A DNA stretch of 64,000 bases from an uncultured Planctomycetia bacterium (GTDB lineage: Bacteria; Omnitrophota; Gorgyraeia; 2-01-FULL-45-10; JAHFGN01): positions 364 through 64,363 of the forward strand of contig CAYHAE010000001.1 of the NCBI GenBank assembly GCA_964354545.1. The letters run 5' to 3'. The notes under the pieces were generated by a model. It was not told the origin of the DNA and searched no databases. It saw only the letters and a program-made list of their open reading frames with translations. Position 1 is the stretch's first letter. Every line of letters starts with the position of its first letter. Below are positions 3,573 to 62,194 of this stretch, in pieces. Made by a program: the position numbers and the translations under genes.

Positions 3573-3685
3573 TTTTAGCGTATAGCGGTTAGTAAAATGG
3601 AGCTGACGGTAGAGTGATATACCAAGGTTTTTCACTATGCGCGCTATACGCTAAACGCTATACGCTGACCGCTAAACGCTCGATA
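3573..3685. repeat. Short copy of a terminal-inverted-repeat element. The arms TAGCGTATAGCGGTTAGTA and CTATACGCTAAACGCTATACGCT are separated by about 45 bp.
   Basis: The arms are reverse complements of each other. Near-identical arms flank a 440-bp insert at 61751-62194. Confidence 0.5.
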
Positions 3686-12094: not shown

Positions 12095-13171
12095 ATGATA
12101 TTGAAATCCCTCTTAGGGGCCGGACATAAGCTCATCAACAACGTCCTGGGTCTTTTTGCAAATGATATGGGGATAGACCTCGGCACCGCGACGACGCTTG
12201 TCTACGTGAAGAACCAGGGCATCGTGATGTGCGAGCCGTCGGTAGTGGCGGTTCAGGCGGGGACCACGAACGTGCTCGCCGTGGGGGAAGAGGCCAAGCG
12301 CATGCTCGGCAGGACGCCGGGGAACATCGTGGCCATACGGCCGATGAGACACGGAGTGATCGCAGATTTTGAAATTACCGAATCGATGCTCCGTTATTTT
12401 ATAAGGAAGGTCAATCAGTCAAAGGCCCTCTTCATGAGGCCGCGGATCGTGATCGCGATACCTTCGGGGATCACCGAGGTCGAAAAGAGGGCGGTGAAGG
12501 ACTCGGCCCTTCACGCAGGCGCGAGAGAAGTGTATATGATAGAAGAACCGATGGCGGCGGCGATCGGGGTGGGGCTGCCGATCCAGGAGCCGTCGGGGAA
12601 CATGATAATCGATGTGGGGGGCGGGACAACGGAGATGGCGGTCATATCGCTCGCAGGTATCGTCTTTTCCAAATCCATCAGGATAGGCGGGGACGAGATG
12701 GACGAGGCGATCATCGATTATCTCAAGAAGAACTACAACCTGATGATCGGCGAGAGGACGGCCGAGGACATAAAGATAAAGATAGGGTCAGCATACCCCT
12801 TGGAGCAGGAGCTCTCCATGGAGGTGAAGGGCCGCGACCTCGTTGCGGGTCTTCCGAAGAGCGTCACGGTGACGAGCGAAGAAGTAAGGGAGGCGCTCGC
12901 GGAACCCATCGCACAGATAGTGGAGGCCGTGAGGATCACGCTGGAGCGGACGCCCGCCGAGCTCTCGGCGGATCTGATCGAGAAGGGCATCGTGATGGCC
13001 GGAGGCGGATCCCTCTTGAGGGGGCTCGATAGGCTCATATCGGAGGAGACAGGGCTTCCCGTTCACCTCGCTGAAGACCCTATGACTGCGGTTGCGCTGG
13101 GCACCGGGAAGGTATTGAGCGAGATAAAATATCTCAGGCGTGTCACTATCATGCCTAAGCTGGAACGCTAA
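12095..13171 (+). CDS. mreB: Rod shape-determining protein MreB.
   Basis: Actin-fold motifs [13 protein letters not shown] and [11 protein letters not shown]. The gene order mreB-mreC-mreD-mrdA-rodA supports the call. Confidence 0.9.
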
Positions 13172-13970
13172 CGAAACGGAAAGCCGCTCAGATGTGTACG
13201 TCCCTAGAATAAGGATACTCTCGCTTTTCATTTTGGGCCTCGTTTTTCTCCTCATCATTACAAAACCCACCATGCTCACGACGCAGAGGATCGCATTCGT
13301 TGACCTCACGCGTCCCCTGCTGAAGGCCCTGAAGGACGGCTCCTTCCATGTGAGAAGGCTCATCCCGTTCGCCTCTTACAGGGACGAGATCACACGCTTG
13401 AATTCCACAATAGATATGATGGAGCAGGAGGTCCTCCGGCTCAAGGCGATCGAGGCAGAGAACGAGCGCTTGAGGAACGTGCTCCAATTCAAAAAGCAGC
13501 TCCCGTTCGCGACCGTGCCCGCACAGGTCATCGGCAGAGACCCTTCCAACTGGTCGAATTCCGTGATCATAGATAAGGGCCGCGGGGATTCGGTGAGGCC
13601 GAATATGGCGGTCATTTCCACAAAGGGCCTCGTAGGGAGGGTGATCGAAGCGGGTAGAAGATCGAGCAAGGTCCTGCTCATCACGGATACGAATTCTAAG
13701 GTCGGGGCGATACTGGAGAAGGATAGGCAGGGCGGGATCGTTGTCGGCAGGCCTGACGGAACGTGTAAGATGATATATATCTCCCTTGATACCGACGTGA
13801 CCGTCGGAGAAAAGGTGTTCACTGCCGGCTACGGTGCGATATTCCCCAAAGGGCTCTTGATAGGAGAGGTCATAGGCTCCGGCAAGGAGCCCGGGAGGCT
13901 CTATAGGTATGCCATTGTCAAGACCTCCCAGGACCTCTCGAAGATAGAGGAGGTCCTGTGTATACGGTGA
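13140..13970 (+). CDS. mreC: Rod shape-determining protein MreC.
   Basis: N-terminal TM segment, a coiled coil and the C-terminal MreC beta domain. The real start may be the in-frame GTG near 13194, which has an upstream GGAAAG. Confidence 0.8.
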
Positions 13971-14494
13971 GCCGGCTGAAGATGTACAGCCTCATCGCTC
14001 TCGCAGCGGTCCTCCAGATCACGGTCCTCGGGCGGCTCGAGTTCCTCCACGCTGTGCCGGATATCGTCTTTTCTTTCGTCGTCTTTTTTGGGCTCTTCGG
14101 GACGAAGAAGGTCGCGCTCGAGGCGGGCATATTCGCGGGGCTCCTCAAAGACCTCTTCTCGCTCAATGTGTGCGGCCTCAACATACTTGTCCTTTCTTCC
14201 GTGAGCATTCTCATCAACAGGGTCGCCCCCCGTTTCTACAGGGAATCGAGGTTCACCCAGGGTTTTTTGACGGCCGCGTTCTACATGTTCTCCGGAAGCA
14301 TGTACTACATGCTCACCGTTTTGGCGGGCGGAGCGGGCGGAAGGTCTGTTGTCGCGAGGGATTGTCTCCCTTCGTTTCTCGACCTCCTCGCATCATCCAT
14401 CGTTCCGGGAGCTCTCTATGCGAGCCTCGCCTCGATCGTCGTGTGCGGGACCTTGATGGAGTGGCATAAGGCGAGGGAGCGGTTTCTCTTCTAA
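13958..14494 (+). CDS. mreD: Rod shape-determining protein MreD.
   Basis: A 178-aa polytopic membrane protein in the conserved position after mreC. Confidence 0.7.
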   Translation: MYTVSRLKMYSLIALAAVLQITVLGRLEFLHAVPDIVFSFVVFFGLFGTKKVALEAGIFAGLLKDLFSLNVCGLNILVLSSVSILINRVAPRFYRESRFTQGFLTAAFYMFSGSMYYMLTVLAGGAGGRSVVARDCLPSFLDLLASSIVPGALYASLASIVVCGTLMEWHKARERFLF

Positions 14495-14540: not shown

Positions 14541-16301
14541 ATGAGACAGGAGGCACTCACGCTTTTCATCACCATACTGTTCGTCTTTCTTCTGCTGGGC
14601 CTCATCTATGCTCAGGTGCTGAACCACGACGCCTACTACGCTCAATCGCAAAATAATTTCATAAGGATAGTTCCCATCGACGGCCCGCGCGGGAAGATCT
14701 TTGACAGGAACGGCCGCATCATGGTGAACAACAGGCTCTCCCTCGACGTATCGTGCATCTATCAGGAGATAGGCCGCAAGGACCTGTTCATCAAGACGCT
14801 GGGTACGGTGCTTGGTACATCGCCAAGAGGCGTCATTCGGTGTCTGGAAAAGGCGAGCGAAAGGCCCTTTGCCCCCGTGACGCTGCAGGAGGATGTCGAG
14901 AAGGAGCGGGCGATAAGCCTGGAGGAACTCGAACCGGGCGTGCGGGGAGCGGTGATCGAGCCGAAATCAAAGAGGGATTACGTCTACGGATCCGCAGCGG
15001 GGCACATATGCGGATACCTTGGGGAAGTAAATGAAGAAGAGCTCGACCGGCTCAGGGGCTACGGGTACAGGATGCGGGACCTCATAGGCAGGAGCGGCCT
15101 GGAGAAATATTACAATAATTATCTCACGGGTATCGACGGGGGCGAGCAGATAGAAGTAGACGCGAGGGGGAGGCGCGTGAGCCTCCTCGGCCTCAAGGAG
15201 CCAAAGGCGGGGAAAGACCTATGGCTTACCATCGATGCCCGGCTCCAGCAGCTCGCACAGAATCTCCTCGAAGGGAAGACGGGGGCGATCGTGCTGATGG
15301 ACCCGAGGAACGGCGAGGTCCTCGCGCTCGCGAGCAGTCCCGCCTACGATCCCAACACATTTGTGAGGCCGAGAGAATTTGCGGAGCGCATGAGGCTGGT
15401 TGAGGACAGGTCCAAGCCGTTCTTGAACAGGGCGATAGGCGGTGTCTACGCGCCGGGTTCGGTATTCAAGATAGTGACCGCATGCGGAGCGCTCGAAACG
15501 AAAAAGATCTCACGGTATACCCGTTTCACCTGCACAGGAACGTATAAGCTCGGCGGCACTACGTTTCACTGTTGGAAAGAGGGCGGCCATGGGCCCCAGG
15601 ACATCATTGACGCGATCAAAAATTCCTGCAATGTGTTTTTCTATACGGCCGGCAAGAGCCTTGGCGTTGACGCGCTGGAGTCGTACGCGCTGCGGTTCGG
15701 TTTCGGCAAACCAACGGGAATAGACCTGCCTGAGGAGGCCTCCGGCCTTGTCCCCGGCAGGCTGTGGAAGATGCTCGCCAAGAAAGAGGCATGGTACGAT
15801 GGGGAGACGGTCAACTTGGCAATAGGGCAGGGATATCTCATGGTGACGCCGCTCCAGGTGCTCAGGATGACGGCGTGCATCGCGAACGGCGGGAAACTCG
15901 TCCGCCCCTTCATGGTGAAACGCATCGGCCCTGTAGAGGTGGGCAGCTCGCGGCTTCAAGACCTTGGGTTGTCGGCCGAGACCGTAAGGATCATAAAAGA
16001 AGGGATGCTCAAGGTCGTGAACGACGATTCCGGCACGGGCAGGCGCGCGAAAGTGGACGGTCTCGTAATAGGAGGGAAGACGGGAACGGCCCAGAATCCC
16101 CAGGGCGTGCCCCATGCGTGGTTCATCGGGTTTGCCCCAGCGGAAAACCCTTCGTTATCGGTCGTGGTCATGGTCGAGCACGGAGGGAGGGGCGGGTATG
16201 AACCCGCGGAGATCGCCCACGATATATTCAAGGCTGCGCGCGAGATGGGCTATCTGCCCGCTTCAGGTAAGGCAGTATCGGACGTCGCATCGCAGAGGTA
16301 A
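14541..16301 (+). CDS. mrdA: Penicillin-binding protein 2 (peptidoglycan D,D-transpeptidase MrdA).
   Basis: N-terminal TM segment, the PBP dimerisation domain, and transpeptidase motifs SVFK, SCN and KTGTA. Confidence 0.9.
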   Translation: MRQEALTLFITILFVFLLLGLIYAQVLNHDAYYAQSQNNFIRIVPIDGPRGKIFDRNGRIMVNNRLSLDVSCIYQEIGRKDLFIKTLGTVLGTSPRGVIRCLEKASERPFAPVTLQEDVEKERAISLEELEPGVRGAVIEPKSKRDYVYGSAAGHICGYLGEVNEEELDRLRGYGYRMRDLIGRSGLEKYYNNYLTGIDGGEQIEVDARGRRVSLLGLKEPKAGKDLWLTIDARLQQLAQNLLEGKTGAIVLMDPRNGEVLALASSPAYDPNTFVRPREFAERMRLVEDRSKPFLNRAIGGVYAPGSVFKIVTACGALETKKISRYTRFTCTGTYKLGGTTFHCWKEGGHGPQDIIDAIKNSCNVFFYTAGKSLGVDALESYALRFGFGKPTGIDLPEEASGLVPGRLWKMLAKKEAWYDGETVNLAIGQGYLMVTPLQVLRMTACIANGGKLVRPFMVKRIGPVEVGSSRLQDLGLSAETVRIIKEGMLKVVNDDSGTGRRAKVDGLVIGGKTGTAQNPQGVPHAWFIGFAPAENPSLSVVVMVEHGGRGGYEPAEIAHDIFKAAREMGYLPASGKAVSDVASQR

Positions 16302-16813
16302 ATAACGAGGCTCCTATCCGCCTCATGTAAAGCTGTATCGGATGTCGCATCGAAAAGGTAAATAACAAGGCTCCTATCCGCCTCATGTAAAGCTGTATCG
16401 GATGTCGCATTGCGGAGGTAACGCGCGAGGCTCCAGTCCCGACACCAGTGGAAAGCGAAGCGATCCCCGAAATCTTTCAGATTTCAGGGGAGACGTCGCA
16501 TCTCCCTCGACTTCGCTCGGGATGGTTCGTCCCTCGATATAACTCGGGATCGAATCCTGAGCCTGTCGAAGGATTCGAGGGATGGTGAGCAAAGTCGAAC
16601 CAGCAGAGGCAAAGAGCGAGGCTCCTATCCGCCTCCGGCAAAGCTCCATCGGATGTCGCATAGCAGAGGTAAATAACAAGGCTCCTATCCGCCTCATGTA
16701 AAGCTGTATCGGATGTCGCATTGCGGAGGTAACGCGCGAGGCTCCTATCCCGACCCCAGAGGAGTGGCGAAGCGGGATGTCGCATCGCAGAGGCAAAGAG
16801 CGAGGCTCCTATG
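16262..16813. repeat. Tandem array of about five or six degenerate 60-bp units. It runs from the last codons of mrdA to the rodA start codon and is interrupted by a 170-bp structured insert.
   Basis: The unit GTAAATAACGAGGCTCCTATCCGCCTCATGTAAAGCTGTATCGGATGTCGCATCG[CA/AA]GAG appears adjacent at 16300 and 16360, and again at 16610-16800. The copies are all variants of the ancestral mrdA-stop/rodA-RBS junction. Confidence 0.8.
16437..16612. repeat. Hairpin-rich insert (element A) that carries the 27-nt core CCCGAAATCTTTCAGATTTCAGGGGAG.
   Basis: It interrupts one 60-bp unit. Compare the intact unit at 16720-16790. The core at about 16466-16492 is identical to 29608-29634. Confidence 0.5.
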
Positions 16814-17908
16814 ATACGAAGGGAATTGTTGAGGGATTTCGACGCGACGTTATTGCTTGCGGCGCTCTTGATATTTATGACGGGCCTTGTCTTTCTGTCA
16901 AGCGCCACATCGACGAGGTACCAGGAGCTGAACCTCGCGTTTGTGTCACGGCAGGTCACATTTGCGATATGTGCGCTCGTCGTCATGCTCGTTGTCGTCA
17001 ACGTCAATTATCAGAGGTTCATAGATATCGCATGGGTCTTCTACCTCATCAACATCGCGGCGCTTGTTGTCTTGATGTTCGTCGGGCACTCGAGGCTCGG
17101 CGCGCAGAGGTGGTTCGAGGTCGGTTCATTCACGGTACAGCCGTCCGAGTTCATCAAGCTCACGCTCATTATCGTCCTTGCATCGTACATTAACGGAAAG
17201 AAAGGGCAGCTGGGCAGAGTGGAAAATCTGGTCATACCCTTTCTCCTCTTCCTCGTCCCGTTCGCATTGGTGGTCCTGCAGCCGGACCTCGGAACGGCAC
17301 TCCTCCTCGTCCCCATCCTCTTTGCGATGCTCTACGTCGGAGGCGCACGCGGGAAGCACCTCGCCTTCGCAGGAGGAATCGGGCTTCTCTGCATGCCCGT
17401 CTTCTGGCATTTTCTGAGGGACTACCAGAAACAGAGGCTCCTGGTCTTCATCAATCCAAATATAGATCCCCTCGGCGCGGGTTACACAATAATCCAGTCA
17501 AAGATCGCGGTGGGGTCGGGAGGGTTATTCGGAAAGGGGTGGCTTGCGGGGACGCAGAACCAGCTCAATTTCCTGCCCGAGAGGCACACGGACTTCATAT
17601 TCTCAGTCGTCGGCGAGGAGTGGGGTTTTTTCGGCAGCGCACTTCTCGTCCTTATGTACTACTTTCTCATACGGAGGATATTTCGCATTGCGTGCCTCAC
17701 GAGCGATTTGAGCGGGGCATTGATCGCATCAGGCATAGGTATCCTCCTCGCCCTTCAGGTAGCGATAAACATCGGCATGACGATCGGCCTCATGCCGGTG
17801 GTGGGGATACCGCTCGTGCTCGTGAGCTATGGCGGCTCAAGCCTACTCACGACGTTCGCGGCGATAGGGCTCGTCCTCAACGTGGGCATGAGGCGTTCGA
17901 CGTTTTGA
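16811..17908 (+). CDS. rodA: Rod shape-determining protein RodA (SEDS family).
   Basis: A 10-TM FtsW/RodA/SpoVE-family protein immediately after mrdA. Confidence 0.9.
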   Translation: MIRRELLRDFDATLLLAALLIFMTGLVFLSSATSTRYQELNLAFVSRQVTFAICALVVMLVVVNVNYQRFIDIAWVFYLINIAALVVLMFVGHSRLGAQRWFEVGSFTVQPSEFIKLTLIIVLASYINGKKGQLGRVENLVIPFLLFLVPFALVVLQPDLGTALLLVPILFAMLYVGGARGKHLAFAGGIGLLCMPVFWHFLRDYQKQRLLVFINPNIDPLGAGYTIIQSKIAVGSGGLFGKGWLAGTQNQLNFLPERHTDFIFSVVGEEWGFFGSALLVLMYYFLIRRIFRIACLTSDLSGALIASGIGILLALQVAINIGMTIGLMPVVGIPLVLVSYGGSSLLTTFAAIGLVLNVGMRRSTF

Positions 17909-18357
17909 TGCATAAGTTTTCAGCAACTCTACGGCGTTTACTTTTGTGGTCGCCTCCGCTTGCCGCTCGCTCGGATTCGGCATCCTCGCTCGCTGTGACT
18001 AAAATTTCGATGACTGAATCGCCATAAGGTATCGAAATTTTAGACAGTCGCTCCGGCGACGCACAAAAGTTCCGCCGCTGCGAGAAATGAAAGATACACG
18101 GGAGTGCATGCATGTAATAAAAGGGGCGCGATATTTATTCACCTATAATCACACGCTCAACGCGTAAAGCAGACGGGTGACCAAAAAACGATGCATCGCG
18201 TACAAAATTTTCGACCCATCTCTTGAAACAAATTTTGCACACTGCCCTATAGAGGCAGAGATCATTATCTTTACGTCGAACCCCGAGAGGGGAGATTGAG
18301 AGCGGCAGGACCCGAAAAATTTTTGTATCAGCACACGTCATATAGGTCAAAAAAGAG

Positions 18358-20124
18358 ATGAACGAGAAAATCCTTGAACTGCTACGACATGTTCAAAAGC
18401 CGGGGAGATATATCGGCGAAGAGCATAATGCGGTAAGGAAAGACTGGGCCGGGCCCTATCTTCGCGTCCTCCTGGCTTTTCCCGACATATACGAGGTGGG
18501 GATGAGCTATCTCGGTATGAGGATCCTCTATGGGCTTTTGAATGAGAGGAGCGATGTCCTCTGCGAGAGGGTATTTTCACCGTGGCCCGATATGGAGAAG
18601 CAGTTGAGGGATAACGGGCTTTCGCTTTTCAGCCTCGAATCGAAGAGGCCGATCCGGGAATTTGGGATCATCGGATTCAGTCTCGCGTATGAACTGAATT
18701 ATACCAACGTCCTGAACATCTTGGACCTGGGGCGCATCCCCATGAGATCGCTGGATAGGAGCGATGAGGACCCCCTCGTGATAGCAGGGGGTCCCTCGTG
18801 TTATAATCCGGAGCCGATGGCGGATTTCATCGATGCATTTGTAATAGGAGACGGAGAGGAAGCGATCATCGATGTCGTGGAGGCGTGCAAAGATTTTTTT
18901 GATGACGGGCTGAAGAAGATACGCAACAGGGGAGCGCTCCTGAGGAAGCTCGCGACCTTGGAAGGGGTTTACGTACCGCGCCTCTACGACGTTGGCTACA
19001 ACGGTGACGGGACGGTCCGCGTGTTCACGCCCCTCGAAGGAGCGCCGCCGAAGGTCAGAAAGAGGGCCGTGAAGGATTTAGACGCCGCCTACTATCCTGT
19101 CTCGCAGGTCGTGCCCTACATACAGATCGTACACGACAGGATCATGCTGGAGATAATGCGCGGGTGCGCCCACCTGTGCAAGTTCTGCGAGGCAGGCGCG
19201 ACGTGCCTGCCCAGGCGGGAGCGGTCCACGGAGAAGATCGTTGAGCTTGCCATGAGCGCTTACCGCAACACGGGGTACGAAGAGGTATCTCTCATTTCGC
19301 TCTCGAGCGGCGATCATTCCAGGATACGGGAGATATGCAGGGCCCTCCATGATATCTTCAAGGACAAGGGGGTATCGATCTCCATGCCGTCTCTCAGGAT
19401 CGAGGTGATGACCGAAGAGCTTCCCCAGCTCATTCGCGAGGTGAGAAAGGCAGGCATTACCCTCGCGCCGGAATCCGGAAGCGAGCGGCTGCGAAACGCG
19501 ATCGGAAAGACGATCGCCATTGAGAAATTGTCCTCGACGGTCCTCGAGGCGTACAGATTGGGTTGGGACAGGATCAAGCTCTACTTCATGATAGGACTTC
19601 CGACGGAACGCGACGAGGACCTGCTCTCGACGGTTGACCTCATGGACGAACTGTCGGACGCGCGCAGGGCCCTCGGGAAGGGCCCCGGCCAGATCATCGC
19701 TTCCATCGCGCCCTTCGTGCCAAAGCCGCACACGCCCTTTCAATGGTGGGCGATGGAACCGCAGGCGTCGCTCGATGCGCGGCAGGCTTTTTTGAGAACG
19801 CACGTCCTCCACAGGAGCCGGAACCGGAAGAAGGTGAAGCTGGACTTTCACGATCTCGAGAAGAGCATCCTGGAAGGGGTTTTTTCCAGGGGTGACAGGA
19901 GACTCGGACGGGTGATCGAGAACGCGTACGAATGCGGTGCGCGGCTCGACAGTTGGGGAGAGTTCTTCGAGATCGGCCTGTGGCGCAGGGCGTTTGAGGC
20001 GTGCGGCCTGAACCCTGAATTCTACGTCAATAGGGCGCGGCCATACGAAGAGCTGCTGCCGTGGGATTTTATCGATGTGGGCATTCCAAAGGAAGTTCTT
20101 TTGAAGCGGGCTCAGGAGCAGTGA
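18358..20124 (+). CDS. Radical SAM protein of the TIGR03960 type, with an N-terminal B12-binding-like domain.
   Basis: Radical SAM core with the CAHLCKFCEAG cluster motif (CxxxCxxC). The length and N-terminus (PDIYEVGMSYLGMRILY) match the conserved family that normally partners DUF2344. Confidence 0.85.
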   Translation: MNEKILELLRHVQKPGRYIGEEHNAVRKDWAGPYLRVLLAFPDIYEVGMSYLGMRILYGLLNERSDVLCERVFSPWPDMEKQLRDNGLSLFSLESKRPIREFGIIGFSLAYELNYTNVLNILDLGRIPMRSLDRSDEDPLVIAGGPSCYNPEPMADFIDAFVIGDGEEAIIDVVEACKDFFDDGLKKIRNRGALLRKLATLEGVYVPRLYDVGYNGDGTVRVFTPLEGAPPKVRKRAVKDLDAAYYPVSQVVPYIQIVHDRIMLEIMRGCAHLCKFCEAGATCLPRRERSTEKIVELAMSAYRNTGYEEVSLISLSSGDHSRIREICRALHDIFKDKGVSISMPSLRIEVMTEELPQLIREVRKAGITLAPESGSERLRNAIGKTIAIEKLSSTVLEAYRLGWDRIKLYFMIGLPTERDEDLLSTVDLMDELSDARRALGKGPGQIIASIAPFVPKPHTPFQWWAMEPQASLDARQAFLRTHVLHRSRNRKKVKLDFHDLEKSILEGVFSRGDRRLGRVIENAYECGARLDSWGEFFEIGLWRRAFEACGLNPEFYVNRARPYEELLPWDFIDVGIPKEVLLKRAQEQ

Positions 20125-20193
20125 TCGCCTTATGTAATGATTTGCACCTAATAACGATATAAGATATATGCAATTTCGTTCGTTCAGCGTATT

Positions 20194-20494
20194 TTAGTGA
20201 ATGGTGAATAGTGAATAGGCCACCTTATCCGCCTTCGCAGAAGACCACGGATGTCAACCCGTGGATGAATGCGACCAGATGCTTCGGCGGTCGCCACCAA
20301 GGCTTCGGCGACCGTCCGCCGACGATTCAGTGGCGGACGGATGTCACACCTGACGTGCAGGCGGATACCCCCACCGCCTAGATTTACGAAGTAAATCTGG
20401 TGGGGGTAAAGAAAGGGACCACGGGCGTAAGCCCGTGGGGTTCCATTGGCCATATCGCAAAATTATTCACTAATAACCATTCACTATTCACTAA
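20194..20494. repeat. About 300-bp element with imperfect terminal inverted repeats (left TTAGTGAATGGTGAATAGTGAATAGGCCA, right TGGCCATATCGC...CCATTCACTATTCACTAA). The interior is a string of GC-rich hairpins.
   Basis: The ends are mutual reverse complements. Internal stems include CCACGG/CCGTGG, GTCGCC/GGCGAC, CGTCCGCC/GGCGGACG, CCCCCACC/GGTGGGGG and a GTAA tetraloop hairpin CACGGGC-GTAA-GCCCGTG. Confidence 0.5.
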
Positions 20495-20524
20495 TAATCA
20501 AGGATAGCCAAATTCCAAGCTTGT

Positions 20525-23181: not shown

Positions 23182-23640
23182 ATGGCAGCGATTCGAAGGA
23201 TTGTTTCAAAACAATTAGGCGAGCTCCTCCTCGAGAGGAGGCTGATCGATCAATCCCAGCTCGAGTCGGCCCTCAAGCTGCAGAAAGAGAAGGGTGGGCT
23301 CATCGGTCAGATACTCGTCATGCTCGGGTACGTGAAAGAGGAGGATATTGCCCAGGCCATCACCGTCCAGTATGGTTTTCCCTTTCTCTCCCTGGAGAAT
23401 TACGAGATCAACCAGGAAGCACTACAGCTTATACCCGCGAGCGTGGCCCTCCAATACAACATCATACCCGTGGACAAGATAGGGAATATGCTTACGGTCG
23501 CGATGTCGAATCCGCTCAACCTGCAGGCGGTCGAGGACGTGGAGATGATCACCAAATGCCAGGTGCAGGTGTTCGTGAGCACCCTGACCGCCGTCACCGA
23601 AGCAATAAAGAAATATTATGGAGTTATCCCTAAGAGATAG
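23182..23640 (+). CDS. Standalone GspE-N (T2SSE_N / MshEN-like) domain protein.
   Basis: Only 152 aa. The N-terminus QLGELLLERRLIDQSQLESALKLQ matches the MshEN-type LGxxLLxx(x)LIxxxxLxxALxxQ helix pair. The rest matches the GspE-N fold (IPVDKIGNMLTVAMSNPLN). There is no ATPase domain. Confidence 0.7.
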   Translation: MAAIRRIVSKQLGELLLERRLIDQSQLESALKLQKEKGGLIGQILVMLGYVKEEDIAQAITVQYGFPFLSLENYEINQEALQLIPASVALQYNIIPVDKIGNMLTVAMSNPLNLQAVEDVEMITKCQVQVFVSTLTAVTEAIKKYYGVIPKR

Positions 23641-25354
23641 GCTTACCAAGATACTGATAGACGCGAAGCTCATCACCTACGAAGACCTCCTCAAGGCCAT
23701 CACGGTTCAAAAAGATCGCGGGGGAACGCTGGGCGAAACGCTTGTCAATCTCGGGCACATCTCTAAAGACCAGCTCATGCTCGCCATAAGCCAGGGCCTC
23801 GGGATACCCCCGATAAACCTCTCCCGCTATAAGGTAGATCCGAATATCCTAAGGCTGATACCGCCGAAGATCGCCAAGCACTACCAGATCATACCGCTCT
23901 CCAAGATAGGGAACACCCTCACGGTCGTCATGTCTGACCCGCTCAATATATTCGCGATCGACGGCATAAAGGCATTCACGGGCCTGAAGATATCCCCCCT
24001 CATCACTACCGAGCAGGACATAAAGGACGCCATCGCGCAATACTATGAGGAGGATGCGTCTTTGGTCATGGATAAGATCGTCGACGACCTGGGAGGGGGC
24101 GGCGAGATCACGGTGGTCGAAGAGAAGGGCGCTGCCGAAGGAGAGACGTCCACGGAATTGCTCAAGATGACGCAGGATGCGCCCGTAGTGAAATTTACAA
24201 ACGCCATACTCGCGGAAGGCGTTGACGTAAAGGCGAGCGACATCCTTGTGGAGCCTCTCGAGGACCAGATGAGGGTACGGTACAGGGTCGACGGCATTCT
24301 GCATGAAGGAAAGCACGCCCCAAAGGTGATGCACAAAGGCATTGTGTCGAGGCTCAAGGTAATGTCTGAGCTCAACATCGCCGAGCGCAGGCTGCCGCAA
24401 GACGGGCGGTTCAAGATACGCCTCCACAATCGGGAGATCGATTTCAGGATCTCCGTGCTCCCTTCGAAAGAAGGGGAGAAGGTGGCGCTCCGGATACTGG
24501 ATAAAGCGCAGGCGAAGCTCAACATAGAGGACCTCGGTTTTGATGAACATTCGGTCACGGAGATGAAGAAGGCCGCCGCCAAACCCCACGGCATGATACT
24601 CGTCGCCGGCCCGACAGGGTGCGGAAAGACGACGACCCTCTACTCTATCTTAAAGCATGTCGATTCACCCACGCTCAACCTCGTGACAGTGGAGGACCCT
24701 GTCGAGTACCTGTTGGATGGCATCAACCAGGTCACCGCGCGGCCCGACCTCGGTCTGACGTTCGCATCTGCGCTGAGGTCTATCTTGCGGCAGGACCCCG
24801 ACGTCGTGATGATAGGCGAGATAAGGGATTTTGAGACGGTCGATATCGCGATCAAGTCTGCGCTCACAGGGCATCTCGTGTTGAGCACGCTCCATACGAC
24901 GACCGCGCCCGGTTCGGTGATCCGCCTTGTGGATATGGGGGTCGAACCCTTTCTCCTCACGTCCTCCCTCATCCTGGTCGTGGCGCAGCGGTTGGTGAGG
25001 AAAATCTGTATGGTGTGCAAAGAACCGGTGAAATTAGACGACGCGATCGCGGAAAAGCTCAGGCTTGACGCGAATGAGGTGAAGGGCACGTTGTACCGGG
25101 GGAGGGGCTGCGACACGTGTTTAAAGACGGGCTATAAAGGCCGCGTGGGCATTGTGGAGGTGCTGTCCCTTACGCCAAAGGTAAAAGAGCTCATCCTCAA
25201 GGGTGTCCAGGAGTATGAGATACGGGATGAGGCGAGGAAAGAAGGGATGCTGAGCCTGCGCGAGAACGGGATAAAGAAGGTGTTAGAAGGGGCCACGACG
25301 CTTGACGAGGTCTTCCGTGTCACCGTGGGGAACCAGGATCTGGAGCTGAAATAA
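23618..25354 (+). CDS. pilB: Type IV pilus assembly ATPase PilB (GspE family), paralog 1.
   Basis: Tandem GspE-N domains at the N-terminus, Walker A GPTGCGKTTT and the tetracysteine motif CMVCK...CDTC. Confidence 0.9.
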   Translation: MELSLRDRLTKILIDAKLITYEDLLKAITVQKDRGGTLGETLVNLGHISKDQLMLAISQGLGIPPINLSRYKVDPNILRLIPPKIAKHYQIIPLSKIGNTLTVVMSDPLNIFAIDGIKAFTGLKISPLITTEQDIKDAIAQYYEEDASLVMDKIVDDLGGGGEITVVEEKGAAEGETSTELLKMTQDAPVVKFTNAILAEGVDVKASDILVEPLEDQMRVRYRVDGILHEGKHAPKVMHKGIVSRLKVMSELNIAERRLPQDGRFKIRLHNREIDFRISVLPSKEGEKVALRILDKAQAKLNIEDLGFDEHSVTEMKKAAAKPHGMILVAGPTGCGKTTTLYSILKHVDSPTLNLVTVEDPVEYLLDGINQVTARPDLGLTFASALRSILRQDPDVVMIGEIRDFETVDIAIKSALTGHLVLSTLHTTTAPGSVIRLVDMGVEPFLLTSSLILVVAQRLVRKICMVCKEPVKLDDAIAEKLRLDANEVKGTLYRGRGCDTCLKTGYKGRVGIVEVLSLTPKVKELILKGVQEYEIRDEARKEGMLSLRENGIKKVLEGATTLDEVFRVTVGNQDLELK

Positions 25355-27063
25355 TGGAGGCCCTCAAGGATAGGATCCTCAGGGTGCTCATCGATACGCA
25401 ACGCGTGAAGCCGAGCGAGCTCAAGAGGGTCCTCGAAAAGCAGAAGGACAGCCGGACGAGCATGAGCAAGGTCCTGGTCCAGGAGGGTCTCATCTCAGAG
25501 AAGGACCTCATGCTGATCTTGAGCCAGGAACTGAACATCCCTCCCATAAGCCTTTCGAAATATAAGATCGACCAGGCCACCGTACGCCTCATTCCGGAAA
25601 AGATCGCCCGTCAGTTCTTTCTCATTCCGCTTTCGAAGATCGGAAAGGTGCTCACCGTTGCAATGTCCGACCCGCTCAACATCATCGCCATCGACGAGGT
25701 GAAGCTGCTCACGAACTATAAGATAGACCTCGTCATCGCAACAGAGAACGACATCAAAGAGGCGCTCGATGCCTACTATGGTACCGCGACCCTCGAGACA
25801 CAGGAGGCGCTGGATACGCGCGCTGTCGGCGAGGAGCTCGAGATCGTTGAGGGAGAGGAGTTCGATGTCGACAGCATCTCCCAAGAGAGCCAGAAGGCTC
25901 CCATCGTGAAGATGGTGGACGTGATCTTGAACGATGCGCTGAGGAGGCGTTCGAGCGACATACACATTGAGTCGTGCGAGAAGATGCTGCGGATACGGTA
26001 CAGGATCGACGGAGACCTTCAGGAGGTCTTTAAACTCCCGAAGAAGAACCAGAATGCCATCATCGCACGATTTAAGATCATGTCCAAGCTCGACATCACG
26101 GAGACGCGTCTCCCGCAGGACGGGAGGTTCAGGATAAACTTCGAAGGGAAGGAGATAGACTTCAGGGTCTCGGTGCTTCCCATTGCGTTCGGGCCGAAGA
26201 TCGTCTTGAGGGCGCTCGATAAATCGAACTTGAGCGTGGGGCTCGACAAGCTCGGCTTCCTTCCGTATTCCCTCAATGTCTTCAAGGAGGCGCTCAAGCG
26301 TCCGTACGGCATGATACTCGTCACAGGGCCGACGGGGAGCGGGAAGTCGACCACCCTGTATTCCATCATCAATCAACTCAACACGCCCGAGAGGAATATC
26401 GTGACGCTCGAGGAGCCTGTGGAGTACGAGTTGCAGGGCATCACGCAGGTCGAGGTGAGGTCGGATATCGGCCTCACCTTTGCGAACGGGCTCCGGTCCA
26501 TCTTGCGGCAGAGCCCCGATGTGATCATGGTCGGAGAGATCAGGGATTTCGAGACGGCGGATATCGCGATAAAGGCCTCGCTCACAGGGCAGCTCATCCT
26601 GAGCACGCTCCACACGAACGACTCGGTCGGAGCTATTACGAGGCTCGTCGATATGAAGGTGGAACCATTTCTGTTATCATCGAGCCTCATCATGGCATGC
26701 GCCCAGAGGCTCCTCAGGAGGACCTGCCCCCATTGCAGGGCCGAGGTGGACGTGCCCAAAGGTGTCTTGGAGGAATTCGGCATCGATCCGCTTGACGAGC
26801 ACAAGAAGAAGAGGGTCTTCTATGAGGGGAAAGGGTGCGAGAAGTGCAACAGCTCCGGTTACTATGGAAGGTCCGGGATACTTGAGGCGTTCCTCATCGA
26901 TGACACGATGCGCGATATGATCATCAGGAGGGCATCGAGCGACGAACTGAAGGCGCATGCCATGAAAAAAGGGATGAGGACGCTGAGGCAAGAAGCGCTG
27001 GAAAATTTCGTCAACGGTGTCACGACCCTGGAAGAGGTCTTGAGGGTGACCGCGGAGGGGTAA
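25354..27063 (+). CDS. Second GspE-family assembly ATPase (PilB paralog 2).
   Basis: Same architecture as paralog 1: Walker A GPTGSGKSTT and CPHCR...CEKC. Its start overlaps the paralog-1 stop in a TAATG arrangement. Confidence 0.85.
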   Translation: MEALKDRILRVLIDTQRVKPSELKRVLEKQKDSRTSMSKVLVQEGLISEKDLMLILSQELNIPPISLSKYKIDQATVRLIPEKIARQFFLIPLSKIGKVLTVAMSDPLNIIAIDEVKLLTNYKIDLVIATENDIKEALDAYYGTATLETQEALDTRAVGEELEIVEGEEFDVDSISQESQKAPIVKMVDVILNDALRRRSSDIHIESCEKMLRIRYRIDGDLQEVFKLPKKNQNAIIARFKIMSKLDITETRLPQDGRFRINFEGKEIDFRVSVLPIAFGPKIVLRALDKSNLSVGLDKLGFLPYSLNVFKEALKRPYGMILVTGPTGSGKSTTLYSIINQLNTPERNIVTLEEPVEYELQGITQVEVRSDIGLTFANGLRSILRQSPDVIMVGEIRDFETADIAIKASLTGQLILSTLHTNDSVGAITRLVDMKVEPFLLSSSLIMACAQRLLRRTCPHCRAEVDVPKGVLEEFGIDPLDEHKKKRVFYEGKGCEKCNSSGYYGRSGILEAFLIDDTMRDMIIRRASSDELKAHAMKKGMRTLRQEALENFVNGVTTLEEVLRVTAEG

Positions 27064-27119
27064 AGGAGCAAGAGGGGACCGTGAGTCCCTTGAGCGCGAC
27101 ACGGAGCGGAGGACGTGCC

Positions 27120-28334
27120 ATGCCACACTTTCGATATACCGCAAAAGACAGCAAGGGGAATTCGCTCAAAGGCGTGTTAGAGGCCGCCACGAGGCAGGAA
27201 GCGGTGGCCGCCCTCCATAAGCAGGGCGTGTTGATCATATCGCTCGGCGAGGTGAAGGCAAAGCAGGCGGGGCGTTCGGCCGGCCACTTTGCAAAGAAGG
27301 TGAAGATGGACGAGCTTGTCATCTTCTCCCGGCAGCTCGCGACGATGGTCGATGCGGGGATACCTCTCGTAGGCGCTCTCGACATCCTTGGGCAGCAGAT
27401 AGAGACAAAGTCGTTCAAAAACGTGGTGCAGGGGATCCGCGAACGGGTGGAGGCAGGGGAGAGCCTTTCTGACGCCATGTCAAAACACAGGACGATCTTC
27501 TCAGAGCTTTTCGTCAATATGGTGAAGGCGGGGGAGGCGAGCGGCATGCTCGATGAGATACTCGAAAAGGTCGCAGAATATCTTGAAAAGACGAGTGCGC
27601 TGCAGAGGAAAGTTCAGTCCGCACTCATCTATCCGGCGGTAGTGACCTCGATGGCGATCGGCATTACGCTCGTCCTTCTGATCAAGGTGATCCCGGTCTT
27701 CAAAGATATATACTCAGGCTTTGGGGCAGCGCTTCCCAGGCCGACGCAAATCCTCATCTTCGTGAGCGATGCCCTCGGAAAGTATTTCCTCGTGACTACG
27801 ATTGTCCTCGTGCTCGTCTTCATTGCCCTCGGTCGATATCTCCGTACGGAGCGCGGCAGATTTATGTTCGATAGTTTCCTTCTCAGCGTTCCCGTATTCG
27901 GGGTCCTGTTCAAAAAGGTAGCAGTGAGCAAATTCACAAGGACGCTTTCTACGCTCGTGAAGAGCGGCGTCCCCATACTCACCTCACTTGAGATAGTGAG
28001 CAGGACATCGGGCAATAAGGCGGTAGAAGCGGCATTAGAAGTGGTCCGCAAGAATGTGCGCGAAGGCGAGAGGATCGCGGACCCTCTTGCGAAATCGAAG
28101 ATATTTCCTCCGATGGTGGTGAGGATGGTTGCTGTGGGTGAACAGGCCGGACAACTTGAGAAGATGCTCACCAAGATAGCAGATTTTTATGAAACCCAGG
28201 TGGACGCTGCGGTAAGCGGCCTCACGAGCCTTATCGAACCCCTCATTATTCTATTTCTTGGCATCGTCATAGGAACCATTGTCATCTGTATGTTCCTGCC
28301 CATATTCAGGCTCACCTCTGTATTGGGTGGGTAA
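27120..28334 (+). CDS. pilC: Type IV pilus platform protein PilC (GspF family).
   Basis: Two T2SSF repeats separated by TM segments. I chose the MPHFRY start. The track ORF begins 13 codons upstream. Confidence 0.9.
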   Translation: MPHFRYTAKDSKGNSLKGVLEAATRQEAVAALHKQGVLIISLGEVKAKQAGRSAGHFAKKVKMDELVIFSRQLATMVDAGIPLVGALDILGQQIETKSFKNVVQGIRERVEAGESLSDAMSKHRTIFSELFVNMVKAGEASGMLDEILEKVAEYLEKTSALQRKVQSALIYPAVVTSMAIGITLVLLIKVIPVFKDIYSGFGAALPRPTQILIFVSDALGKYFLVTTIVLVLVFIALGRYLRTERGRFMFDSFLLSVPVFGVLFKKVAVSKFTRTLSTLVKSGVPILTSLEIVSRTSGNKAVEAALEVVRKNVREGERIADPLAKSKIFPPMVVRMVAVGEQAGQLEKMLTKIADFYETQVDAAVSGLTSLIEPLIILFLGIVIGTIVICMFLPIFRLTSVLGG

Positions 28335-28648: not shown

Positions 28649-28984
28649 ATGGTCAGAAGACATAAAAAGGGATTCACGCTTGTTGAAATCATGATAGTCG
28701 TCGCAATTATAGGTCTATTGGCTGCCATCGCTATCCCGAACTTTGTGAGGGCGAGAGAGACGGCAGAAAGAAATGCGTGTATCGCAAACCTGAAGCAGAT
28801 ACAGGGTGCAGTTCAGGTGTGGGCGATCGACACGAGTGCGGGGTCCACTTCAACGCCAACCGCGACATCAGATCTCGCGAACTACATAAAGACATGGCCG
28901 AAGTGCAAAACAACTACGTATGCGATACCCGCAGTCAGTGCAAACCCCGCGTGTCCAACCACCGGCACTGGACACAACCTCTAA
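28649..28984 (+). CDS. Type IV pilin (prepilin N-terminal cleavage/methylation domain), copy 1.
   Basis: Class III signal MVRRHKKG|FTLVEIMIVVAIIGLLAAIAIP with a Cys pair in the C-terminal region. An RBS (AGGAGG) precedes it. Confidence 0.85.
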   Translation: MVRRHKKGFTLVEIMIVVAIIGLLAAIAIPNFVRARETAERNACIANLKQIQGAVQVWAIDTSAGSTSTPTATSDLANYIKTWPKCKTTTYAIPAVSANPACPTTGTGHNL

Positions 28985-29019
28985 TCTTAAGGGGTAATCC
29001 ATTTTTCGTGCGAGGTGCG

Positions 29020-29057
29020 AAAAGGACGGCTATCGTATTATTGCCGTCCTTTTTGCT
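29020..29057 (+). terminator. Rho-independent terminator after pilin copy 1.
   Basis: AAGGACGGC-loop-GCCGTCCTT followed by TTTTT. Confidence 0.6.
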
Positions 29058-29180
29058 TTGGGTATTTCGAAAATTATTTAATTATTATCAGAGCACAACA
29101 GCTGTAAATGAAAGGGGGTGAGGACCGGCCTAAAGACTTTTTTTATCGGACCCATTTTTGGGAAAAAGGAGGGATGAGAC

Positions 29181-29516
29181 ATGGTCAGAAGACATAAAAA
29201 GGGATTCACGCTTGTTGAAATCATGATAGTCGTCGCAATTATAGGTCTATTGGCTGCCATCGCTATCCCGAACTTTGTGAGGGCGAGAGAGACGGCAGAA
29301 AGAAATGCGTGTATCGCAAACCTGAAGCAGATACAGGGTGCAGTTCAGGTGTGGGCGATCGACACGAGTGCGGGGTCCACTTCAACGCCAACCGCGACAT
29401 CAGATCTCGCGAACTACATAAAGTCATGGCCGAAGTGCAAAACAACGACGTATGCGATACCCGCAGTCAGTGCAAACCCCACGTGTCCAACCACCGGCAC
29501 TGGACACAACCTTTAA
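29181..29516 (+). CDS. Type IV pilin, copy 2.
   Basis: The protein differs from copy 1 at 2 of 111 residues (T to S and A to T). The upstream leader and RBS are also duplicated. Confidence 0.85.
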   Translation: MVRRHKKGFTLVEIMIVVAIIGLLAAIAIPNFVRARETAERNACIANLKQIQGAVQVWAIDTSAGSTSTPTATSDLANYIKSWPKCKTTTYAIPAVSANPTCPTTGTGHNL

Positions 29517-29518
29517 TC

Positions 29519-29715
29519 CTGTTATCAGAGTTCCACGAGCTACGCCCGTGGGTTGCACCCGCGGACGTAGACCGCGGGTGCATGGCGGAGCGGTCCGGGA
29601 TTTAATTCCCGAAATCTTTCAGATTTCAGGGGAGCGGTTGCCGCACAAGGAGAGTATTCAGTGCGGGTACCGCGGGCTGCGTGCCAACGGCAGGCGTACC
29701 CGTGGGGCTCCAGGC
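29519..29715. mobile_element. Structured insert of about 197 bp (element B) in the 3' UTR of pilin copy 2. It carries the same 27-nt core as element A.
   Basis: Copy 1 reads TAATC|TTAAGGGG. Copy 2 reads TAATC[197 bp]TTAAGGGG. The insert is hairpin-dense (TGCACCCGCGG/CCGCGGGTGCA, CCACG/CGTGG, GCCGCAC/GTGCGG) and has the core at 29608-29634. Confidence 0.5.
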
Positions 29716-29749
29716 TTAAGGGGTAATCCATTTTTCGTGCGAGGTGCGG

Positions 29750-29790
29750 AAAGGACGGCTATCATATTATTGCCGCCCTTTTCTTTTTAG
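29750..29790 (+). terminator. Terminator after pilin copy 2 (slightly degraded duplicate of the copy-1 terminator).
   Basis: AAAGGACGGC-loop-GCCGCCCTTTTCTTTTT. Confidence 0.5.
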
Positions 29791-29905
29791 GACAGCGCGA
29801 TAAACGTTTTTCATAATGCAATCGTGATATCGGGGCCACGTATCTGTTGAAGAGTAAGGCGCTTTTTGACTTCACCCGATCCTAGGAGGGAAGGGGGGAT
29901 GAGAC

Positions 29906-30241
29906 ATGGTCAGAAGACATAAAAAGGGATTCACGCTTGTTGAAGTCATGATAGTCGTTGCAATCATAGGTCTATTGGCTGCCATCGCCATCCCCAACTT
30001 TGTAAGGGCGAGAGAGACGGCAGAAAAGAGCGCGTGTATATCAAACCTGAAGCAGATACAGGGTGCGGTCGAAATGTGGGTACTCGATACGAGCGCGGCA
30101 TCTTCGTCAACGGCGTCTGGAACATCAGACCTTGTGAATTACATAAAGGTATGGCCAAAGTGTAAGGCGAGCACATATGCGATACCTGCGGCAGACGGAA
30201 CGCCCGTGTGTCCGAACAGCATAGGCGGACACAACCTCTAA
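29906..30241 (+). CDS. Type IV pilin, divergent third paralog.
   Basis: Same N-terminal domain as copies 1 and 2. The variable C-terminal half is divergent but the Cys pair is conserved. Confidence 0.85.
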   Translation: MVRRHKKGFTLVEVMIVVAIIGLLAAIAIPNFVRARETAEKSACISNLKQIQGAVEMWVLDTSAASSSTASGTSDLVNYIKVWPKCKASTYAIPAADGTPVCPNSIGGHNL

Positions 30242-30555: not shown

Positions 30556-31563
30556 ATGCCGAAAGCAAGGGTAGAGAAAAAACTGGGTATCGATATCGGA
30601 AGCTACGCCATAAAGTTGGTCGAACTTCACTTGTCCAAGGATGAGAACAGGGTCGCCAGCATTGGAATTAAAAGGATCGAGAACAGCTCCCCGGAAGCCC
30701 TAGCAGGAAAGGTGAGGGAGCTCTGCGAGGAATCAAAAGTGAAGACGAGGGACGTGAGCCTGTCTGTCTCCGGCCCGCAGGTTATCACGCGGCTCATTAC
30801 AATGCCGACAATGTCCGACTCGGAAATGAAGAATGCGCTCGTGTTCGAAGTCGAGAAGACCATCCCCTTTAGTCCCGAAGAGGTTATCTACGATTACCAG
30901 GTGCTCGAGCGAGGGAAAGAGAAGAAGATGGACGTCCTGCTCACGGCGGTCAAGAGAGATTACGTGCAAAAGTACATCCAGATCGCCCAGTCGAGCGACC
31001 TGAGCCTTCGCGTCGTGGACGTGGACTCCCTTGCGCTCGCAAATGCGTTCGTGAAAAACTCCGAAGGCTCCCTCGACCAGAATAAGACGGTCGCGCTTCT
31101 CAATATCGGCGACAGATATACGAACCTCGACATATTGCGCGGAGGGGTCTTGAGCTTCTCCAGGGATATACAGATAGGAGGGCGCGATGTCAATGAGTCC
31201 ATTGCGCGGATACTGAACGTCGACAGCAAGGGCGCGGAAAAGCTGAAGTTCGACCCCAAGGAGCGCGCGGACGAAATAGGCCTTCCCATTAGAATGGTGT
31301 TGGCCAATCTGGCTGACGAGCTGAGGCTGTCATTTGGGTATTTCGAGAATAGATTCGGGAGGAACGTCGATGACCTGTATCTCTCCGGAGGGTCATGCGG
31401 CCTGCTCGGCGTGACCGAATACCTCGAGGAGAACCTTGGGCTCAAGGCGAAGGTGTGGGACCCCCTCAAGGCGTTTAGCATAGATCAGGAAAACGTAGGA
31501 AAAGCACTCTCGAACGAGATGAGGCGCAGCCTCGCGGTGAGCGTGGGGCTTGCCCTGAGATAA
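30556..31563 (+). CDS. pilM: Type IV pilus assembly protein PilM (actin-like).
   Basis: The N-terminus LGIDIGSYAIKLVEL has the actin/HSP70 fold. It is followed by pilN, pilO, pilP and pilQ. Confidence 0.85.
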   Translation: MPKARVEKKLGIDIGSYAIKLVELHLSKDENRVASIGIKRIENSSPEALAGKVRELCEESKVKTRDVSLSVSGPQVITRLITMPTMSDSEMKNALVFEVEKTIPFSPEEVIYDYQVLERGKEKKMDVLLTAVKRDYVQKYIQIAQSSDLSLRVVDVDSLALANAFVKNSEGSLDQNKTVALLNIGDRYTNLDILRGGVLSFSRDIQIGGRDVNESIARILNVDSKGAEKLKFDPKERADEIGLPIRMVLANLADELRLSFGYFENRFGRNVDDLYLSGGSCGLLGVTEYLEENLGLKAKVWDPLKAFSIDQENVGKALSNEMRRSLAVSVGLALR

Positions 31564-41420: not shown

Positions 41421-41452
41421 TTCCGCCGGAGGCGGATCCGCCTTCGGCGGAA
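41421..41452. repeat. Perfect 32-bp palindrome TTCCGCCGGAGGCGGATCCGCCTTCGGCGGAA (REP-like). Copy 1 of 2.
   Basis: Self-complementary. A second copy is at 53810-53841. Both are followed by AAAGTGCAA. Confidence 0.7.
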
Positions 41453-51853: not shown

Positions 51854-51931
51854 TTTATACCGTTTGAGAATCGCATCGGCAACGTGTTCCCGAGTTGAGA
51901 TCCCACCTGCTCCCAACGACCGCACTACGCC

Positions 51932-51966
51932 ATACGCAATACGCGATACGCAATACGCAATACGAA
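51932..51966. repeat. Five tandem heptamers ATACGCA / ATACGCG / ATACGAA.
   Basis: Direct reading. It lies in the rsmA-gatC spacer. The motif resembles the CGCTATACGC repeat arms seen elsewhere in the window. Confidence 0.6.
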
Positions 51967-53809: not shown

Positions 53810-53841
53810 TTCCGCCGAAGGCGGATCCGCCTTCGGCGGAA
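53810..53841. repeat. Second copy of the REP-like palindrome TTCCGCCGAAGGCGGATCCGCCTTCGGCGGAA.
   Basis: Matches 41421-41452 at 31 of 32 positions. Confidence 0.7.
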
Positions 53842-61755: not shown

Positions 61756-62194
61756 CGTATAGCGGCTAGTACACTAACATCGCTTATAATATCCATAGTC
61801 CACAGACCACAGACAATAGACCATAGACTGTGAAACGCGGACCATATGCTAAACACCAAAATATCCAGTCACGCATCAGTTTTACGTGTTGAGTGTGTGG
61901 TACGATGAAGGGGTGGACGGATCCAGGGCATAAAAGCGCCCGGGGCCCCCGAGGGGCGGCATTGAGCGGGACGTAAAAATCGCGAGCGGGCACGGATCCC
62001 GAGCCCGCTAAAAGATGTATGCGAGGGAGAGCGAGCGATTTTTCTCGAGTGCAATTTTCCTCGCCGGGGAAAATTGCACGTTCCCGCGAAATGACGACCC
62101 GAGAGGGGGCAAGAGCTTGCAATGAAGGAGGTGGGTGGCATGCTGTATAGGATGCTCAATCCTATACGCTAAACGCTATCCGCTATACGCTATT
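61751..62194. repeat. About 440-bp element flanked by TAGCGTATAGCGGCTAGTA and CTATACGCTAAACGCTATCCGCTATACGCT. It is the long version of the 3573-3685 element.
   Basis: The arms are nearly identical to those at 3573 and 3650. The interior holds a 12-bp-stem hairpin GTGCAATTTTCC/GGAAAATTGCAC. It separates larB from larC. Confidence 0.5.

Follow-up and report, generated by a model that had tools for sequence, protein, structure and literature searches.

The mrdA–rodA locus of an Omnitrophota metagenome-assembled genome raises the question of what lies between two genes that overlap by 4 nt in relatives, and how it came to lie there. In the 64-kb stretch of this genome that was analysed (the window, whose positions serve as coordinates throughout), the space is filled by a tandem array of seven diverged units of about 60 nt each (16257–16811; 555 nt). 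We consider it rather likely that this array is a lineage-specific intergenic minisatellite of the kind known as mycobacterial interspersed repetitive unit–variable-number tandem repeats (MIRU-VNTR), and it is probably near-neutral DNA, not a regulator.

The two genes themselves are readily recognized. The mrdA open reading frame (ORF; 14541–16301, + strand) encodes a PBP2 of 586 aa with the Pfam domains PBP_dimer and Transpeptidase, and the rodA ORF (16811–17908, + strand) encodes a protein of 365 aa with the Pfam domain FTSW_RODA_SPOVE, whose start is homologous to the rodA starts of relatives. We compared their junction with that of six independent relatives (P0002, P0003, P0004, P0006, P0007, and P0010), whose RodA proteins are 64–77% identical. 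All six have a 4-nt overlap of mrdA with rodA and, where it is complete, a PBP2 of 572–579 aa. The four relatives that were aligned at the sequence level end PBP2 in ...GY(L/I) or ...GLV, following the pattern ...(E/D)(M/L/A)G(Y/L)(L/I/V)-stop, and their rodA start codon (ATG or GTG) shares TG with the TGA stop. Removal of 16257–16811 from the window gives ...GAG ATG GGC TAT CTG|TGA TAC GAA..., the exact junction architecture of these four relatives. Since the deletion restores the relatives' junction, the 555 nt are, as judged by this comparison, a lineage-specific insertion of 185 codons.

The insertion point could be placed to the nucleotide. The functional mrdA terminus, FKAAREMGYL (16227–16256, + strand), is colinear with the termini of the relatives, and the insertion follows directly after its last codon, CTG, between the last mrdA sense codon and the shared stop/start. 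The mrdA frame resumes after 555 nt at the TGA overlapping the rodA ATG, the A of which is the final base of the insert. Upstream, mrdA reads through 14 extra sense codons (PASGKAVSDVASQR) to a TAA within the first unit (16257–16301), and the ancestral ATGA/GTGA overlap is replaced by a 509-nt gap between the mrdA stop and rodA. A GAGG Shine–Dalgarno sequence for rodA (16802–16805, + strand) stands 5 nt before its ATG and outside any stable hairpin. A sequence-only reading of this stretch had taken the codons ...SDVASQR-stop for the last codons of mrdA, reproduced in each unit. The PBP2 ends of the relatives, GY(L/I) or GLV, differ from them, so that these codons are repeat sequence into which mrdA now reads, and not a copied ancestral mrdA end.

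The array was delimited by several approaches. Tandem Repeats Finder (TRF) reported a 60-nt period in two stretches, 16258–16421 (2.7 copies, score 258) and 16602–16812 (3.5 copies, score 218), which are the sole long-period arrays in the window; the same program found no long-period array in 78 kb of fetched loci, those of the relatives included. A repeat search with a 38-nt core located seven in-register copies at spacings of 60, 60, 191, 60, 60, and 64 nt. Two core motifs each had nine matches with at most two mismatches, against approximately 2.5–2.8 expected, a count that was reached in none of 100 shuffles, and close matches to both motifs all fell within the array. TRF, core search, and shuffles thus agree with the sequence-only reading on a tandem 60-nt array at this junction. 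Its count of five or six copies has to be raised to seven, designated c0 to c6 and arranged as A-A-B-C*-A-B-C in three sequence types, with c3 interrupted.

Five of the units measure 60 or 61 nt, one measures 63 nt, and one is broken up by about 128 nt of hairpin DNA. Read along the + strand, c0 (type A, 61 nt, 16257–16317) contains the mrdA tail and the TAA stop at 16299–16301; c1 (type A, 60 nt, 16318–16377) contains an ATG-TAA pair at 16325–16330 and a mini-ORF at 16342–16365; c2 (type B, 60 nt, 16378–16437) has ATG-TAA at 16385–16390 and is identical to c5 at 58 of 60 positions; c3 (type C, 191 nt, 16438–16628) is a c6-like unit broken by two structured inserts; c4 (type A, 60 nt, 16629–16688) is without ATG-TAA and has CCGGCAAAG in its place; c5 (type B, 60 nt, 16689–16748) has ATG-TAA at 16696–16701; and c6 (type C, 63 nt, 16749–16811) is the source of the rodA translation-initiation region. 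This last copy does supply the real rodA start, as had been proposed, by giving GAGG-N5 and the A of the ATG. Every unit carries "(S)DVA..R-stop" codons and a GAGG/AAGG-CTCC(T/A)(A/G)T motif. The Shine–Dalgarno-like tetramer earlier ascribed to every copy is indeed present in all, as GAGG in five and as AAGG in two, whereas the start-stop pair CCTCATGTAAAG, likewise ascribed to every copy, is restricted to three of the seven units (c1, c2, and c5; ATG at 16325, 16385, and 16696).

The blocks GGAYGTCGCAT and AGGCTCC do not vary among the seven units, unlike the remainder of the unit. All seven units are distinct: copies are 77–97% identical, the five 60-nt units share 46–58 of 60 positions in pairwise comparison, and every unit-to-unit junction is unique. 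The longest exact repeat inside the array is 79 nt, and the GC content of the array resembles that of its flanks. At a higher order, 16292–16462 and 16603–16774 are duplicates with 89.5% identity. Because all units differ and a higher-order duplication of 89.5% identity is superimposed on them, the array would have passed through several rounds of duplication followed by divergence.

The origin of the unit can be traced in part. The last 24 nt before rodA (CAGAGGCAAAGAGCGAGGCTCCTA|TGATAC; 16788–16811, + strand), now untranslated rodA leader, probably descend in decayed form from the ancestral mrdA terminus (cf. ...GGCAAAGGAGCTGGGCTACCTG|TGATA at locus L005). Aligned with the L005 terminus (AAGGGGCAAAGGAGCTGGGCTACCTG|TGATAT), they gave 19 matches in 24 positions with two 1-nt gaps. 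The anchored alignment score was 10 against L005 and equal against L011, a score as high being found in 13 of 21,014 background windows. This corresponds to p ~6e-4 per test, to ~0.01 after correction for the 21 comparisons at the 24-nt length, and to ~0.04 after correction for all 63 comparisons (three lengths). It is thus probable that the unit has at its 3' end a degenerate duplicate of the mrdA terminus, a segment that contained the ribosome-binding region of rodA as well. The remaining ~40 nt gave no convincing match to the 3' region of mrdA, to the 5' region of rodA, or to the rest of the window, and comparisons of this part with the flanks gave p > 0.05 in every case but one. A by-eye match between "SDVAS" and "AEIAH" failed statistical testing. 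The earlier notion that the junction had been expanded into copies of itself may accordingly hold for the last ~24 nt, which resemble the mrdA terminus, and finds no support in the ~40 nt that match neither flank.

The interruption of c3 consists of two elements with predicted folds: a 29-nt hairpin (CCCCGAAATC-TTTCA-GATTTCAGGGG; 16463–16491, + strand) and a 99-nt long imperfect stem-loop (16503–16601, + strand) that is similar to repetitive extragenic palindromes (REPs) and miniature inverted-repeat transposable elements (MITEs). The region 16455–16605 folds far better than shuffles on both strands (z = -3.8 on the + strand and -3.7 on the - strand). The hairpin recurs in the window: 16463–16492 and 29605–29634 (+ strand) are identical at 29 of 30 positions (E ~4e-6), the second copy being part of a structured, 216-nt spacer that separates tandem pilin genes. 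Other intergenic gaps in the window contain structured inserts as well, and the genome readily accumulates small non-coding elements. The palindromic feature of REPs and MITEs is found in the c3 inserts only, the repeat search having returned no inverted repeat in the 60-nt units. For the gap as a whole, the + strand RNA folds no better than its shuffles (z = 0.2), and the - strand RNA gives z = -2.78. Hairpins of the form GAGGC-N8-GCCUC are predicted at four unit boundaries, with energies of -5.7 to -11.4 kcal/mol; they enclose internal GAGG/AAGG motifs and adjoin the ATG of the start-stop pairs. Two further unit boundaries and the real rodA leader are without such a hairpin.

The spacer that contains the second hairpin copy (29515–29730) is itself strongly structured (z = -6.0), has no Rfam match, and separates the last two of three tandem type IV pilin-like genes. 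All three genes (28649–30241) encode 111 aa with an N-terminal methylation motif; copies 1 and 2 share 99% DNA identity, and the third is ~80% identical. They belong to a type IV pilus/type II secretion cluster, downstream of paralogous T2SSE/PilB-type ATPase genes (23618–25354 and 25354–27063), and are preceded by a homologue of type II secretion system protein F (27081–28334) and followed by PilM (30556–31563).

Taken together, these data suggest the following history for a minisatellite of this kind. The ancestor would have had a 4-nt mrdA/rodA overlap (…GGC TAT CTN TGA, with the rodA NTG inside), coupling the translation of RodA to that of PBP2. The short mrdA terminus, holding the rodA ribosome-binding region, would then have been duplicated along with ~40 nt of filler, and the resulting unit of ~60 nt (20 codons) amplified by slipped-strand or unequal recombination, single units first and the three-unit A-B-C block afterwards. 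Small palindromic elements would later have invaded one unit. Among the possibilities raised in the sequence-only reading, its fallback, a slippage-prone repeat, fits best.

The same sequence features suggest how such an array could be tolerated: each unit brings its own stop, its own Shine–Dalgarno sequence, and the base that restores the start. The mid-unit TAA in the mrdA frame would limit the gain of PBP2 to a 14-aa tail, and the unit's 3' end, GAGG-N5 followed by the ATG-rebuilding base, would allow whichever unit comes last to act as the rodA initiation region. Direct termination–reinitiation coupling between PBP2 and RodA would be lost and replaced by Shine–Dalgarno-led initiation, possibly aided by a 33-codon small ORF in c5–c6 (16713–16814, + strand) that runs in the mrdA frame and ends with a TGA overlapping the rodA ATG (ATGA). 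Independent initiation at rodA is plausible, since a GAGG-type Shine–Dalgarno sequence is common ahead of window genes (16 of 51, against a background of 14%) and GAGG stands at -9 for both mrdA and rodA.

Several points weigh against this explanation. The array is known from one assembly, with no conspecific genome or reads beside it, and its near-neutrality is assumed. The relic similarity is moderate after multiple testing (21 tests at 24 nt, 63 in all), and the source of ~40 nt per unit is unexplained. The two invariant blocks, moreover, could mean selection and not shared descent or gene conversion.

The comparison with mycobacteria rests on architecture. As in the MIRU-VNTR loci (Supply et al. 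1997, 2000; including the rnc-fpg1 locus VNTR3239/ETR-F), direct tandem units of 40–100 bp (here seven of 60 nt) lie in the same orientation between co-oriented operon genes (here mrdA and rodA), mixed unit types form complex arrays, and one lineage has expanded a junction that measures just a few bases in related species. The rnc-fpg1 gap of M. tuberculosis holds 279–358 bp of complex repeats ending at the fpg1 start, whereas in the other mycobacteria listed it measures 1–54 bp, and the repeat length correlates modestly with expression (PMC2734929). According to the passage of PMC12548453 that cites Supply et al. 1997, MIRUs insert at start codons and the repeat-borne ORF stays coupled at -4; in the present array, the stop of the ORF at 16713–16814 overlaps the rodA start in the same manner. 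The differences are also clear. The mrdA stop (16299–16301) is not overlapped by a repeat ORF, the next ATG being at 16325, and the array belongs to a different phylum (Omnitrophota) and host locus, where no similarity to the MIRU consensus would be expected. MIRU-VNTRs are dispersed over many loci with variable copy number, whereas this array is known from one locus in one assembly, and part of its unit, unlike theirs, looks derived from the local mrdA terminus.

Other known systems resemble the locus in part or were set aside. Like REPs, bacterial interspersed mosaic elements (BIMEs), and MITE-like palindromes, the two c3 inserts are palindromic and intercistronic, and one of them recurs in the window; REPs in such a position can stabilise the mRNA upstream of them. 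The 60-nt units, in contrast, are direct repeats with neither inverted repeats nor excess structure. Coupled overlapping gene pairs (ATGA/GTGA, termination–reinitiation) represent the ancestral state in six of six relatives, and the last small ORF recreates ATGA with rodA, but mrdA itself stops 509 nt before rodA, where direct coupling would be lost. A CRISPR array was ruled out, as the whole 60-nt unit repeats and there are no unique spacers, and so was a diversity-generating retroelement, as the differences between units are not adenine-specific. A sponge of CsrA-type GGA sites (the units contain AUCGGAUGU) is speculation only: no supporting hairpin context was seen, and csrA was not searched for.

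Whether the array does something for its host is the first matter on which a rival reading turns. In that reading, which we regard as unlikely, the array is adaptive, a device acting on translation or stability that uncouples RodA from PBP2 and tunes their ratio by means of decoy Shine–Dalgarno sites, start-stop mini-ORFs, a ribosome relay over short ORFs, and/or the c3 hairpins as a site of mRNA stabilisation or processing. In its favour, the c3 insert is strongly structured (z = -3.8). ORF analysis found short + strand ORFs (16342–16365, 16402–16542, 16582–16701, and 16713–16814) that tile much of the gap and together cover most of it, the final one ending ATGA on the rodA start; yet the gaps between successive ORFs are 11–39 nt, and translational coupling drops steeply when the distance grows by less than 20 nt (PMC12548453), so that a relay of ribosomes from mrdA to rodA would be inefficient. 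The hairpins at the unit boundaries enclose four of the six internal GAGG/AAGG motifs and leave the rodA Shine–Dalgarno sequence free, but two internal motifs are unsequestered, and over the gap as a whole the + strand does not fold better than its shuffles. The units do resemble start-stop minimal ORFs in that three of them have an ATG directly before TAA; however, this concerns three of seven units only, and these ATGs lie at the hairpin foot and 14 nt from GAGG/AAGG, a distance too long by the usual Shine–Dalgarno spacing rule. The invariant blocks within the units would also suit a device, as would the correlation of repeat length upstream of fpg1 with expression in M. tuberculosis (PMC2734929), but the array is absent in six of six relatives and hence not conserved. 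The regulatory readings (decoy sites, start-stops, hairpin stabilisers) are unlikely and find no specific support. Of the suggestion that the array modulates coupling between the two genes, the structural part stands, in that the overlap has become a 509-nt gap, and the part concerning decoy sites finds no support, given the 14-nt spacing and the position at the hairpin foot.

We give slightly less credence to the idea that the unit is a mobile, dispersed, MIRU-like element with 4-nt stop/start overlaps as its targets and with a stop and ribosome-binding site of its own, in which case this locus would be one of many. The insertion point does fall precisely between the final sense codon and the overlapping stop/start, an ORF within the repeat is coupled at -4 with the gene downstream in the way that the cited passage of PMC12548453 describes for MIRUs, the genome holds other small dispersed or inserted structured elements, and ~40 nt of the unit are without a local source. 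However, the window contains no second copy of the unit despite overlaps at 15 of its 50 gene junctions, and the unit's 3' end looks locally derived. Collections from which the source genome is absent were scanned with the pattern GTCGCATN5AGGNAAN6AGGCTCC (19 specified bases, matching six of the seven units), which gave one single match in genome contigs, three in metagenome contigs, and none in viral contigs: four in all, approximately the number expected by chance. In a blastn follow-up of the pattern loci L007–L010, similarity to the array was confined to 19 nt at the pattern match in L009. The six-frame translation of the insert found nothing at E <= 1 among 5.8 billion proteins, and blastn against plasmid and phage collections gave no match. 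Rfam 15 likewise had no match in the whole window at the gathering score and none in 16200–16900 at E <= 10.

An assembly artefact, in which a repeat was misassembled or strain variants were joined in tandem, is very unlikely. The contig does come from a metagenome-assembled genome, the 79-nt exact internal repeat exceeds the k-mer size of some assemblers, and there is no second assembly of the organism for comparison; nevertheless, the copies are 77–97% identical and not identical, one unit bears an independent insertion, and each of the seven distinct units with their unique junctions would need its own read support. A path swap across the 79-nt repeat would leave an unattached cycle, and the reported order would be the only linear path using all units. 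Hardly credible, finally, is a product of the - strand, either a repeat protein (ORFs 16383–16796 and 16477–17007) or an antisense RNA. Long - strand ORFs cross the array and the - strand carries one terminator-like site, but a 60-nt repeat free of stops would give open frames in any case, and neither a homologue of the translations nor a promoter-like site was found. The - strand fold, although better than shuffles (z = -2.78), owes its signal largely to the c3 palindromic insert, which is equal on both strands. On the + strand, the promoter/terminator scan found neither a terminator-like nor a promoter-like site inside the array. We retain the lineage-specific minisatellite as the favoured explanation.

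The array lies in a co-directional run, mreB-mreC-mreD-mrdA-rodA, of which mreB (12095–13171), mreC (13140–13970), and mreD (13958–14494), all on the + strand, were identified from the ORF list and by comparison with gene order and Pfam labels at the loci of the relatives. A radical-SAM gene (18358–20124, + strand; ORF and Pfam) follows in the same co-directional run. The best RodA matches carry the annotation Candidatus Omnitrophota/Omnitrophica. Look-ups of the exact PBP2 and RodA sequences of the window found neither on record; both form singleton protein clusters, and the nearest other RodA is 77% identical.

Further repeats and elements were observed elsewhere in the window. The gap between rodA and the radical-SAM gene measures 449 nt, against 46–126 nt in relatives L001 and L003, and contains a 13-bp perfect inverted repeat (CTAAAATTTCGAT...ATCGAAATTTTAG) at ~17998–18042. 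Beyond the radical-SAM gene, the intergenic region before the next gene holds an element of ~310 nt (20190–20500) that has a GC-rich multi-stem core and is itself flanked by inverted heptamer arrays of ~25 nt (TAGTGAA... / ...TTCACTA). Its RNA fold reaches -148 kcal/mol (z = -10.6), it has no Rfam match, and the corresponding gap in L001 is only ~95 nt; the element might represent a MITE-like insertion or else a structured RNA not described so far. A 32-nt near-perfect palindrome, TTCCGCCGAAGGCGGATCCGCCTTCGGCGGAA, occurs twice (41421–41452 and 53810–53841), each time just past a gene end, and could be either a REP-like element or a terminator hairpin common to both sites. Many short tandem arrays with a 7-nt unit were found, at 1824–1916, 3642–3680, 51921–51964, 61800–61828, 62162–62193, and 63530–63606, in gaps between genes according to a rough gene map; some form inverted pairs (1824–1843 and 1886–1916), and arrays of this type look like a genome-wide habit.

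For the locus itself, the minisatellite has direct consequences. The C-terminal tail of PBP2 and the long antisense ORFs seen here derive from repeat sequence, and short-read assemblies are likely to break or to miscount copies at this site. A more far-reaching outcome is unlikely: the array might represent a mobile minisatellite family of Omnitrophota, which we did not find described, inserting precisely at 4-nt stop/start overlaps and equipped with a stop codon, a Shine–Dalgarno sequence, and a start-restoring base of its own, or else a copy-number-variable tuner of the RodA:PBP2 ratio. If true, either would carry the MIRU principle far outside mycobacteria and provide a natural system for studying how a pair of shape, elongation, division and sporulation (SEDS) protein and class B penicillin-binding protein (bPBP) is uncoupled. 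RodA and PBP2 function together in a complex, and all relatives examined have the two genes overlapping. The present locus would be a natural case in which the coupling of PBP2 to RodA has been broken by 555 nt of repeat with both genes intact, and it raises the prospect that "self-sufficient" junction repeats of a MIRU-like kind also exist outside mycobacteria.

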